DNA of 64,000 nt, taken from IMG/VR virus record IMGVR_UViG_3300048861_000178, positions 96,001 to 160,000 of that record, one strand, 5' to 3'. The stretch is from a virus (Duplodnaviria; Caudoviricetes). The notes beneath the pieces are model-generated. The model made no database searches. It saw only the letters and a list, made by a program, of their open reading frames with translations, and was not told the origin of the DNA. The translations under genes and the position numbers were made by a program. How positions within the stretch are numbered: the first letter of the stretch is position 1; every line of letters starts with the position of its first letter. This document shows positions 5,226 through 63,549 of this stretch, piece by piece.

Positions 5226-5804
5226 ATGCAGAAAATCATGTCGCTGTTTCAACGTCTTCGTGAAGCTGATCCCGTTCGGGGTCGTCTCGTCCACGACGTC
5301 GTGACCGAAGGTGCAGAGTGGGTAATTCGCGGTGAAGGTATCGCGACGCGCAAGTGGGACGGCGTAGCGGTCTTGATCAAAGAGGGTGTGGCGTTCATGC
5401 GCTACGATCTCAAGCAAGGTCGCCAAGAGCCGGAAGGCTTTATCCCTGCCCAAGCTGCCCCTGATCCGATTACCGGTCATTGGCCGGGTTGGATTCCTGC
5501 TGTCTGCCTGTCGGGCAAGTGGGTCATGGAGGCGGTGAACAAAGCGAAGCAGTTGTGGGAAGACGGGGTTCCGGATGGTACCTACGAAGCATGTGGTCCG
5601 AAGATTGGTACGCGTCATGGCGCCAATCCCGAAAAGCTCACCGAGCATGTTCTGATTCCGCATGGAAAAGACGTGATCGAGGATTGTCCGCGTGACTTCG
5701 TAGGCCTGAAGGACTATTTGCAAGCTCGCTCGATTGAGGGCATCGTGTGGCATCACGAAGATGGTCGCATGGTGAAAATCAAGAAGGCAGATTTCCCGTA
5801 TTAA
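5226..5804 (+). CDS. Minimal ATP-dependent RNA ligase-like nucleotidyltransferase (DUF5565 / C12orf29-RLIG1-like)
   Basis: Motif I TRKWDG, GTYEACGPKI, motif IV EGIVW, motif V MVKIK. Confidence 0.65.
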   Translation: MQKIMSLFQRLREADPVRGRLVHDVVTEGAEWVIRGEGIATRKWDGVAVLIKEGVAFMRYDLKQGRQEPEGFIPAQAAPDPITGHWPGWIPAVCLSGKWVMEAVNKAKQLWEDGVPDGTYEACGPKIGTRHGANPEKLTEHVLIPHGKDVIEDCPRDFVGLKDYLQARSIEGIVWHHEDGRMVKIKKADFPY

Positions 5805-61456: not shown

Positions 61457-62188
61457 ATGCCCTTGGTATTGCCTAATTTAAACGAATGGGTTCTGCAAGA
61501 AACCAAGAACAAAGATGGTAAAGAGTTCATGCTGATCACCCACTTGAAAGAGTCGGGTAATACTCACGAGCTTCGCCCTTTGGAACAGTTCAAGCAGGAG
61601 ATGGAAGATGGGGAACCTTTCCCCCTCAACTTGATTATCGAGGACGGTGAGATCCGTAAGCGGACCGCCACCGACCCTTTGCCTCACAATGACGCAGAGC
61701 CTGTCAAAGGGCTGGAAGATTATTTCATGGTCACACGGAACGGGGATTTGTATTCCGTGCGCACCAATCGCGTCGTTTCGCAGAACATTCTCGGCAACGG
61801 CTATCTCGGCCACGTCACGAAGATTGGCGGGCGAGAAGGGCAGAATCGTGCGATTAAGACCAGTCGCGCGGTCGCAGAGGCTTTCATTCCTAATCCGGAT
61901 AATAAGCCCGTCGTCAATCACCTCAGTGGGGTGAAGCTCGACAACCGAGAAACAAATCTTGAATGGGCAACCTATCAAGAGAATTCGATTCACGCTGTGG
62001 AAACCGGACTCATTAAGTTTCCGCAGGGTCCCGATATGCATAATGCCAGATTTACGGCAGAACAAGTGCGCGAGATTCGTGAATTGCGTCAGACGAAAGG
62101 TCCTCGTGAACTTGGTCGAATGTTTGATTGCGACCATACCACGATAATGGATCTGTGTAGCGGTAAGACCTACGGCAACGTAACGTAA
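61457..62188 (+). CDS. HNH homing endonuclease (NUMOD4/I-HmuI-like) with C-terminal HTH
   Basis: VAEAFIPNPDNKPVVNHLSGVKLDNRETNLEWATYQENSIHA. Confidence 0.88.
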   Translation: MPLVLPNLNEWVLQETKNKDGKEFMLITHLKESGNTHELRPLEQFKQEMEDGEPFPLNLIIEDGEIRKRTATDPLPHNDAEPVKGLEDYFMVTRNGDLYSVRTNRVVSQNILGNGYLGHVTKIGGREGQNRAIKTSRAVAEAFIPNPDNKPVVNHLSGVKLDNRETNLEWATYQENSIHAVETGLIKFPQGPDMHNARFTAEQVREIRELRQTKGPRELGRMFDCDHTTIMDLCSGKTYGNVT

Positions 62189-62206: not shown

Positions 62207-62288
62207 GGGGAGGTGCCTGAGTGGTTAAAAGGGCCGGACTGTAAATCCGGTGGCTCTGCCTTCGTGCGTTCAAATCGCACCCTCCCCA
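62207..62288 (+). tRNA. tRNA-Tyr(GTA)
   Basis: GGGGAGG/CCTCCCC acceptor, CCGGA-CTGTAAA-TCCGG anticodon arm, long variable arm, GTTCAAATC; 3' CCA not encoded. Confidence 0.92.
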
Positions 62289-62306
62289 CAATCCTGTTTC
62301 ATCTGG

Positions 62307-62382
62307 TCCGAAATAGCTCAGTCGGTAGAGCGGCGCCCTGTTAAGGCGTAGGTCCCTGGTTCGAGCCCAGGTTTCGGAGCCA
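62307..62382 (+). tRNA. tRNA-Asn(GTT)
   Basis: TCCGAAA/TTTCGGA acceptor, CTGTTAA anticodon loop, GTTCGAGCC, GCCA end. Confidence 0.93.
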
Positions 62383-62408
62383 AGAATTCTGTTGTACCTG
62401 TTTCAATG

Positions 62409-62541
62409 TCCAGCGTAGCTCAGTTTGGAAGAGCGCCCGTAGTTCCCCCGGTTCGAATCCGGGCTTCCCAGTATTGGGAAGTGGTGGAGATGGTATACAC
62501 AGACGGGAGGTCACACGTTCGATTCGTGTCGCTTGGAACCA
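62409..62541 (+). ncRNA. tRNA-like RNA whose anticodon loop is replaced by a 62-nt circularly permuted tRNA module
   Basis: Outer D arm, T arm and ACCA end; inner T arm CCCGG-TTCGAAT-CCGGG, closed acceptor CTTCCCA-GTAT-TGGGAAG, inner D arm. Confidence 0.75.
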
Positions 62542-62565
62542 TCCTTTTACCGTTGTACTTCAGTG

Positions 62566-62691
62566 TCCGCAGTAGCTCAGTTGGTAGAGCGCCGTCACCC
62601 GAGTGGGCCCACCTACCGGCCAGGTAGGGTGGACTCTCCCACTCACCAACCAGACGGAGGTCGTTGGTTCGATACCAACCTGACGGAACCA
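62566..62691 (+). ncRNA. tRNA-like RNA with a 56-nt hairpin replacing the anticodon loop
   Basis: Canonical D arm TAGCTCAGTTGGTAGAGC, CCGTC/GACGG stem, T arm GTTGG-TTCGATA-CCAAC, ACCA end. Confidence 0.75.
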
Positions 62692-62708
62692 GTTTTAGTA
62701 GTAACTGT

Positions 62709-62790
62709 GTCCTGTTCGTCTAGCGGCCTAGGACCTATCTTCACGATGAGTGAAGAGAACAACGGGGGTTCGAATCCCTCACGGGACCCA
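62709..62790 (+). ncRNA. tRNA-Glu-like body with aberrant anticodon arm
   Basis: GTCCTGT/ACGGGAC acceptor, Glu-type D arm, GGTTCGAATCC; anticodon arm TCTTCAC-GATGA-GTGAAGA. Confidence 0.6.
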
Positions 62791-62803
62791 AGTTTTGTTG
62801 TAC

Positions 62804-62878
62804 TGTAGTCGGGGGTCAGCCGGGACTGACGTCGGTCTAAACCACCGGAGACGCAGGTTCGACACCTGTCCGACTACA
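62804..62878 (+). ncRNA. Atypical tRNA-like cloverleaf (nominal anticodon AAA)
   Basis: 9-bp TGTAGTCGG/CCGACTACA stem, non-canonical D arm, GCAGG-TTCGACA-CCTGT T arm. Confidence 0.5.
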
Positions 62879-62889
62879 TCACGTATTTA

Positions 62890-63368
62890 GAGTGAATCGA
62901 CTTGCTGTAGCAAGATTCAGGCGAGTTTCGCCTGTGACTCCGTGACTCACGATTAGCGGAGGTACCTACGTGTGGACGAGATCGCGTTTGCGCGCGAAGG
63001 GTGCCACGAATCGTACGACTGGTGACGCAAACACCAGTAAGTTGTTTGTTTCCAGTACCGATACTGCGTCTAGTCTCGCTTCTTCGCGATTCGTTGGTAA
63101 CCGGGGTAACCCGACGTGCCAGCCCGGAGTTGTTACGCCCGTCTTCCTTGTGCGGCCGTTACGGGACTTGTTCGCCTAGTGGCGCCTGCGGTTTTCACCG
63201 CGGCCGCTGCGTCTACGTCGGACTGGGAATGCGCAGCCGGGTGTACTTACTTGCTGGGATGGCCACCCTGTCTGGTAAGTATAGTCGGAAGTGCATTCGA
63301 GTCGCATAGAGTCAAAGCTTTTGCTTATCCCTGTCCACAGGACTTTGCAATCGACGCTTCAGGTATCG
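62890..63368 (+). ncRNA. Candidate large structured RNA downstream of the tRNA cluster
   Basis: Dense hairpins, no credible ORF, ends at a hairpin-TTATGCCG element. Confidence 0.5.
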
Positions 63369-63398
63369 GAGGAGAGCTTCGGCTCTCCTCTTATGCCG
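63369..63398 (+). terminator. Hairpin + TTATGCCG element
   Basis: GAGGAGAGC-TTCG-GCTCTCCTC-TTATGCCG. Confidence 0.7.
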
Positions 63399-63549
63399 TT
63401 CTTTCGAGCACGGCGAGAAAATGCCGTTGTTTCGAGGGAATGTGATTTTTACGCACTGGGCACTTCGTATGGGTAAGCTACTACCCGCACATGAGAGGGC
63501 GCAAAGCCCCGCATTAGTCGTTACTCTACAATTGTTACAAGGAACTGAA

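Follow-up and report, generated by a model that had tools for sequence, protein, structure and literature searches.

A bulged, insert-bearing valine-type tRNA look-alike in a large phage and its possible RNA ligase partner

Results

The tRNA cluster and its surroundings

The window analysed here is a stretch of 64,000 nucleotides that makes up bases 96001-160000 of a 315,190-bp IMG/VR phage record, IMGVR_UViG_3300048861_000178 (G000 below; G002 and G004 are records of sister phages). The genome has one tRNA cluster only, at window positions 62207-62878. It is headed by two ordinary genes on the plus strand, tRNA-Tyr(GTA) and tRNA-Asn(GTT) (62207-62382), which are called by ARAGORN and by the Rfam tRNA model at 62.5 and 69.5 bits, and these are followed by four abnormal tRNA-like genes. 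The first two of the four are sisters that also lie on the plus strand. RNA1 (62409-62541) reads CAC-AG, has an extra T in its acceptor stem and contains a T-arm-like hairpin inside an insert, as judged from ARAGORN, the fold and a nine-sequence alignment. RNA2 (62566-62691), a valine-type tRNA look-alike of 126 nt and the subject of this study, is delimited by its cloverleaf fold, by ARAGORN and by covariation. A covariance model, R1, was built from nine long RNAs of this phage and its relatives that were collected by pattern scans, and was applied to phage loci and to whole phage records; RNA1 and RNA2, both of them seeds of the model, score 137 and 102.5 bits.

The third abnormal gene (62709-62789) is normal in its acceptor stem and in its D and T arms, but its anticodon arm has a 7-bp stem with a loop of 5 nt; the same slot is occupied by a normal tRNA-Glu(TTC) in a related phage, G001. 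In the fourth (62805-62878) the acceptor stem has 8 bp, the D stem has 5 bp and the loop reads CUAAACC (nominal anticodon AAA, C37); this gene encodes no CCA and scores only 17 bits with R1. The sister phage G004 has an extra cluster segment that the window is without, and in it a tRNA-like gene (L103, reverse strand 1384-1461) whose anticodon loop has 6 nt and whose acceptor stem is interrupted in its middle by two mismatches.

An HNH homing-endonuclease gene (61457-62188) lies directly upstream of the cluster, a layout comparable to that of T4, where the gene for the homing endonuclease SegB, of the GIY-YIG family, lies in the tRNA region. Past the cluster there are about 500 nt of non-coding DNA (62890-63400), 92-95% similar in tblastx to the corresponding DNA of G002 and G004, which is probably a large structured RNA. 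The motif TTATGCCG ends both this stretch and a similarly placed one in the 280-kb phage G016, and in the window it is preceded by a GC-rich hairpin. The spacers of the cluster (62383-62408, 62542-62565 and 62692-62708, and positions 1-31 and 160-180 of the metagenome contig L356) have GTTGTAC or GTAGTAG motifs in common, and in these spacers a CA(A/G)TG leader stands immediately 5' of the first base of each RNA, across phage lineages. Motifs and leader together may be a processing signal. A scan for sigma-70 promoters found none, and a BLAST search of the cluster against GenBank phages returned nothing except one match to tRNA-Asn.

Fold of RNA2

RNA2 is a full tRNA cloverleaf with canonical D and T arms, a variable loop and an encoded ACCA end. 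The 5' strand of the acceptor stem, TCCGCAG (62566-62572), pairs with CTG-A-CGGA (62680-62687), and three of the seven pairs are changed on both sides among four orthologs. The direct reading and the fold agree that the 3' strand carries one unpaired base, the A at 62683, between acceptor pairs 4 and 5, and the acceptor/T helix is thus made up of 7+5 pairs plus this base. In the fold the D arm occupies 62575-62590 and the T arm 62663-62679, and all of the bases that make up the core of the L-shape are present (U8, A14, G18-G19, G53-T54-T55-C56, A58 and C61). The molecule ends on the discriminator A73 and an encoded CCA (62688-62691).

The seven-base anticodon loop is replaced by a loop of 56 nt (62597-62652). 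It begins with a single-stranded flank, ACCC (62597-62600), which is conserved as ACCA or ACCT in the orthologs. The inserted hairpin (62601-62644) folds into a helix 1 of 7 bp (GAGTGGG/CCCACTC), an internal loop, a helix 2 of 9 bp with a bulged G (CCACCTACC/GGTAGGGTGG) and a GGCCA loop. The single-stranded 3' flank ACCAACCA (62645-62652), conserved as GCCAACCA in L356 and as ACCATACCA in G016, holds an anticodon-like AAC followed by C37 and A38. A match between ACCAAC of this flank and a T-stem strand was dropped, as it is not kept in L356. A sequence-only reading of the window, made before this analysis, had described the canonical arms, the ACCA end and the 56-nt replacement with its hairpin helices, and had pointed out that RNA1 and RNA2 have the ends TCC...GGA-ACCA in common as well as an extra nucleotide at the same place; all of this is borne out, the extra base being T in RNA1 and A in RNA2.

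RNA2 in relation to known RNA classes

RNA2 falls outside the Rfam tRNA, tmRNA, YrlA and group I intron families. The Rfam tRNA model RF00005 (gathering threshold 29 bits) finds no match over 62566-62691 even with E values up to 10, nor does it match RNA1, and RNA2 was rejected as a canonical tRNA for its 56-nt loop, which has neither seven bases nor U33 nor a purine at 37. At both thresholds used, Rfam returned only the ordinary tRNAs and a spurious match to YrlA, or bacterial Y RNA (RF02553), of 21.9 bits against a threshold of 69; it runs from the T arm of RNA1 to the D arm of RNA2 and thus spans two genes. No TROVE domain (Ro60) was found in the five records searched. The tmRNA search of ARAGORN was negative, and RNA2 has a full D arm. 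An archaeal or eukaryal tRNA intron was rejected because there is no bulge-helix-bulge, the usual site of which is 37/38, the junction being a 4 x 8 internal loop, and a group I intron because the insert measures 49-56 nt against a core of at least 200 nt and no Rfam intron model matches.

Orthologs and selection

RNA2 is identical in G002 and differs by three changes, all in loops, in G004; tRNA-Tyr and tRNA-Asn in the same alignment of sister phages differ at about one site in five. An ortholog in L356 is 76% identical and has changes on both sides of acceptor pair 4, of one anticodon-stem pair, of T-stem pairs and of insert helix 1, and its bulged acceptor base is a T. G016 has a positional ortholog after its tRNA-Asn, which is shorter and has a shorter hairpin. 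Exact-pattern scans of viral contigs gave the known relatives only, and a scan of metagenomes yielded a single new ortholog besides three chance matches.

When the four orthologs are aligned on the fold, 97.8% of the cells are paired and 10 pairs are changed on both sides, a result that none of 500 shuffles reached. In the L356 ortholog compensatory changes are found in all helices but the D stem and hairpin helix 2, and among the four orthologs three of the changed pairs belong to insert helix 1. The hairpin keeps its pairing while its sequence and length drift (the loops range from 37 to 58 nt), and what is conserved is A35-C36 and the two flanks, which read ACCN and RCCA-NACCA; C37 is also conserved in the RNA2 of the window, L356 and G016.

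As judged by these alignments RNA2 is under selection as a gene, as the sequence-only reading had proposed. One could argue that it is a decaying tRNA pseudogene without function, given that four of the six cluster members of this phage are abnormal. A pseudogene would however hardly remain unchanged in G002 next to true tRNAs that differ by about 20%, nor show compensatory helix changes across lineages and a set of features common to five of them; the conservation data already contradict this reading, and we consider it very improbable.

An anticodon remnant with the marks of valine

RNA2 had been described as anticodon-less. This does not hold, since AAC and then CA immediately precede the anticodon stem's 3' strand. 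The last seven bases of the loop read CC-AAC-CA, with A35-C36 at 62649-62650, at the normal distance from the anticodon stem, and with the insert placed 5' of the remnant. In the nine-sequence family alignment this AC, with two bases between it and the downstream strand of the anticodon stem, is the only invariant part of the loop; the triplet is AAC, CAC or TAC, all of them valine anticodons, and the discriminator is always A. The main determinants of valyl-tRNA synthetase (ValRS) are A35, C36 and A73 (PMC9976931), and RNA2 has all three. The minor determinants known from E. coli are partly kept: G45 is present, position 20 is a U instead of G20, and the bulge lies beside acceptor pair 4. Because the E. 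coli enzyme is sensitive to irregular acceptor pairs 3 and 4 (PMC9976931), charging of RNA2 may be poor.

The AAC of RNA2 is flanked by C33 and C37, and neither flank of the insert contains a U. There is therefore no register of excision that would yield a canonical loop, and without U33 and a purine at 37 normal decoding is not to be expected. We conclude that RNA2 is derived from tRNA-Val, is real and under selection, and does not decode.

One explanation of such a molecule is that it is a static decoy that is never cut, and that titrates or misdirects ValRS or another factor that reads tRNA-Val. It would bind through A35-C36 and A73, and the bulge would keep it from being charged or delivered by EF-Tu. 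The conservation of these three bases and the loop without U33 and R37 fit well, irregular or lengthened acceptor stems impair both ValRS and EF-Tu, and plant viruses offer a precedent in their valylatable tRNA mimics. We regard this as a serious but rather unlikely explanation, for reasons that lie in the distribution of the family and are given with the ligase below.

A family defined by an insert and an extra acceptor base

From RNA1 and RNA2 alone the sequence-only reading had suggested a family of RNAs with bulged acceptor stems, to be sought with a covariance model among phage records. The search turned up 17 long genes in five phage lineages (G000/G002/G004, G001, G003, G016 and L356), every one with an insert and with one or two extra acceptor bases in the same alignment column (17/17, against 0/7 ordinary tRNAs at the same loci). 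We define the family by a structured insert at 31/32-33, by one or two extra bases in the acceptor stem's 3' strand and by A73, which is found in all 17; A35-C36 is found in 15 of the 17. RNA2 has all three defining features, together with 16 other genes in G000-G004, G016 and L356. In other phages there are insert-bearing tRNA-like genes whose acceptor stems are normal, and the extra base thus defines a subclass.

The inserts are of several types. At one end of the range are plain hairpins (RNA2), followed by modules that contain a T arm (RNA1), and at the other end G003 has double tRNAs, 160-172 nt long and joined tail to tail. The G003 locus (L132:946-1481) holds three RNAs, all with an extra acceptor base. 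An insert-bearing candidate in G007 was rejected, as the ARAGORN call was poor and only the T arm could be recognised. Four other IMG/VR loci (L015, L025, L044 and L052) have tRNA-Asn(GTT)-like genes in which 40-50 nt are inserted after the D arm, ahead of an intact anticodon stem-loop, a position that differs from that of the valine-type family.

That one body carries different inserts in different members recalls the earlier suggestion of a tRNA scaffold with interchangeable cargo, in which the body would stabilise or display a hairpin such as an aptamer or an antisense RNA. A tRNA body gives processing and stability, which is exploited in engineered tRNA scaffolds. The data do not specifically support it, however: between orthologs the hairpin drifts in sequence and length and only its pairing is kept, what is conserved is the flanks and A35-C36, and the extra acceptor base and the link to a ligase (below) are left unaccounted for. 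We find cargo display quite improbable.

The family also has the look of a set of interrupted valine tRNAs, and one could suppose that RNA2 is an intron-bearing tRNA-Val whose hairpin is excised and whose exons are joined, possibly by a ligase of the RLIG1 type, to give a working decoder. With introns allowed ARAGORN calls RNA1 as tRNA-Val(cac) with the insert at 32/33 and RNA2, at a relaxed threshold only, as tRNA-Val(aac) with the insert at 31/32. An uninterrupted tRNA-Val is absent from G000, G001 (14 ordinary tRNAs), G003 (9) and G009 (5), the three triplets of the family jointly cover the valine codons, two members in G001 (G001_c and G001_d) would yield canonical U33-NAC-A37 loops, unexplained introns occur in the tRNAs of Lak megaphages, and an RLIG1-type ligase co-occurs with the family. 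The missing tRNA-Val therefore keeps this possibility alive for members with canonical flanks. For RNA2 the flanks without U speak against it, as does C37, which the orthologs keep. Neither a bulge-helix-bulge motif nor a group I core is present, a permanent bulge in the acceptor stem would be a burden on a decoder, no insert-free allele was found among the family loci and these records, and human RLIG1 left the exons of a spliced pre-tRNA unjoined (PMC11494293). The perfect coupling of bulge and insert, the conserved C37 and the missing U33 thus speak against the reading as a simple intron whose removal leaves a working tRNA, which we hold to be improbable.

An RLIG1-type ligase that co-occurs with the family

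Comparison of the open reading frames of G000 with the full sequences of G001, G003, G007 and G009 singled out a gene at 5226-5804 (plus strand) that is predicted to encode an RNA ligase of 192 aa, of the RLIG1 family that joins 5'-P and 3'-OH ends (PMC11494293). It matches Pfam PF17720 at 28.8 bits (cut-off 25) and PDB 9c6l with an E value of 1.6e-5, and its ATRKWDG aligns with the lysine mutated in PDB 9c6m, so that the KxDG lysine is kept. With a profile score above the cut-off and the catalytic lysine in place, the gene belongs by its sequence to the RLIG1 family. It is 72% identical to its homolog in G001 and 57% to that in G003, which places it in the 99.5th and 98th percentile of the shared reading frames. 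Other reading frames common to G001 and G003 that G007 is without (17 were screened against Pfam) mostly gave no match.

The RLIG1 profile matches G000, G001, G002, G003 and G005, the last of which comes from the same sample as G004 and probably belongs to that phage, and has no match in 43 records (G006-G014 and 34 further records with insert-bearing tRNA-likes). Counted by lineage among records that are at least 90% complete, the ligase is present in 3/3 carriers of the family and in 0/13 others, a co-occurrence that rests on three to five lineages only. In a core tree of 12 proteins (FastTree, rooted on G009) the topology (G003,(G007,(G008,(G000,G001)))) has full support. G007 and G008, which have neither ligase nor RNA, are placed between the carriers, and both traits must therefore have changed jointly, by gain or by loss, on two or more occasions. 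A single cassette does not carry them, since ligase and RNA genes are 8-117 kb apart. The ligase family is in itself widespread. Of the 44 phage records with the ligase that were searched, most have no such RNA; the ligase thus does not need it. One record, G022, has the ligase together with long RNAs that have normal acceptor stems.

The neighbours of the ligase gene in the window include a weak QueC-like match and no clear healing enzyme. In G001 a Macro-domain gene (L161:10043-10501) lies directly upstream of the ligase, and its counterpart in the window has no Pfam match. A search of G000 found no RtcB, class Ia synthetase, Ro60/TROVE or CCA-adding enzyme. The search for T4 Rnl1 gave no match in G000, nor in the controls, and no cutting enzyme for RNA2 was identified.

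In the anticodon loop of tRNA, human RLIG1 seals preferentially at 31/32 and 32/33 (PMC11494293), and this is the junction at which the inserts of the family sit. Here the static decoy falls short. That many phages have the ligase without such RNAs agrees with an incidental link, but the restriction of the family, among the records tested, to phages with the ligase is then left unaccounted for, as is the constant position of the insert at the junction that the ligase family prefers.

Discussion

The explanation that we favour, with a probability of about 40%, is that RNA2 is a look-alike dedicated to the RLIG1-type ligase, as its partner or its substrate, in a conflict over tRNA between phage and host. 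RNA2 would be cut and resealed on the 5' side of its anticodon loop, either as trimming of the hairpin or as repair of nuclease cuts; the link to the ligase and the position of the insert are what point to this side of the loop as the site of cutting and rejoining. The acceptor bulge and a loop without U33 or R37 would keep the molecule out of translation, while A35-C36 and A73 would engage a protein that reads tRNA-Val, for example ValRS or a tRNA-directed nuclease. We rank this ahead of the static decoy, which is followed by the true intron, by the cargo scaffold and at last by decay.

It is possible to go one step further and propose a protein-only cut-and-rejoin system that acts on dedicated, bulge-marked valine-tRNA look-alikes, in which the cut would be made by a nuclease of host or phage, on the 5' side of the anticodon loop, and would be resealed by the RLIG1-type ligase. 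This fuller scheme is more doubtful, and we consider it somewhat unlikely.

The known systems that resemble RNA2 do so in part. Among published observations the one on Lak megaphage tRNAs comes nearest, and among working systems the closest analogies are the tymovirus tRNA-like ends, the repair of tRNA in T4 and T4 species 1 RNA. The tRNAs of Lak megaphages have introns that were called "enigmatic" (Devoto et al. 2019, PMC6784885), and like the RNA2 family they are phage tRNAs with short, conserved inserts in the anticodon loop that are not group I introns, some of the inserts being tRNA-like themselves. Simple splicing of RNA2 to a decoder is unlikely because its flanks cannot form a canonical loop. 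In the text consulted the Lak paper reports no extra acceptor base, no conservation specific to valine and no link to a ligase (PMC6784885).

The valine-type tRNA-like structure of the tymovirus TYMV is, like RNA2, a virus-encoded and non-decoding look-alike with A35, C36 and an ACCA-type end, which are the features that make the plant-virus RNA a substrate of ValRS. Its place is at the 3' terminus of an RNA genome, and its acceptor stem is pseudoknotted, whereas RNA2 is encoded as a separate gene and combines a normal cloverleaf with an insert.

The ligase of the window resembles RLIG1 and the repair ligase T4 Rnl1 in that it is an RLIG1 homolog with the catalytic lysine kept, from a family that seals nicks with 5'-P and 3'-OH ends in anticodon loops. 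The known role of RLIG1, and of T4 Pnkp-Rnl1 against PrrC, is the repair of ordinary tRNAs, and in the literature searched no dedicated insert-bearing RNA partner of these ligases is described.

T4 species 1 RNA (rnaC), also a stable small RNA encoded in a cluster of phage tRNA genes, has a terminal stem as well as a T arm, but it has no D arm and no valine marks, and scores only 9.5 bits with R1; we know of no function that has been assigned to it. YrlA is likewise a non-coding RNA that mimics tRNA and is found also in phages; it ends on a Ro-binding stem, unlike RNA2 with its acceptor stem and CCA. What we propose for RNA2 can also be compared to tRNA-Sec, where an altered acceptor helix keeps the molecule off EF-Tu and assigns it to a dedicated partner, although tRNA-Sec has an extra base pair and decodes UGA, while RNA2 has a one-sided bulge.

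Conclusions

The family offers three new handles on such RNAs. The insert is always coupled to an extra acceptor base, the valine identity bases are kept though decoding is impossible, and the RNAs co-occur with an RNA ligase whose human relative prefers to seal at the position of the insert. With these, the "enigmatic introns" of phage tRNA genes, which have been on record since 2019, can be turned into a testable hypothesis of enzyme and substrate. If true, the proposed scheme would amount either to an enzymatic pathway of tRNA splicing, the first one in the bacterial world, or to a renewable decoy set against a defence that cuts tRNA, and the locus suggests a new viral way of exploiting the shape of tRNA.
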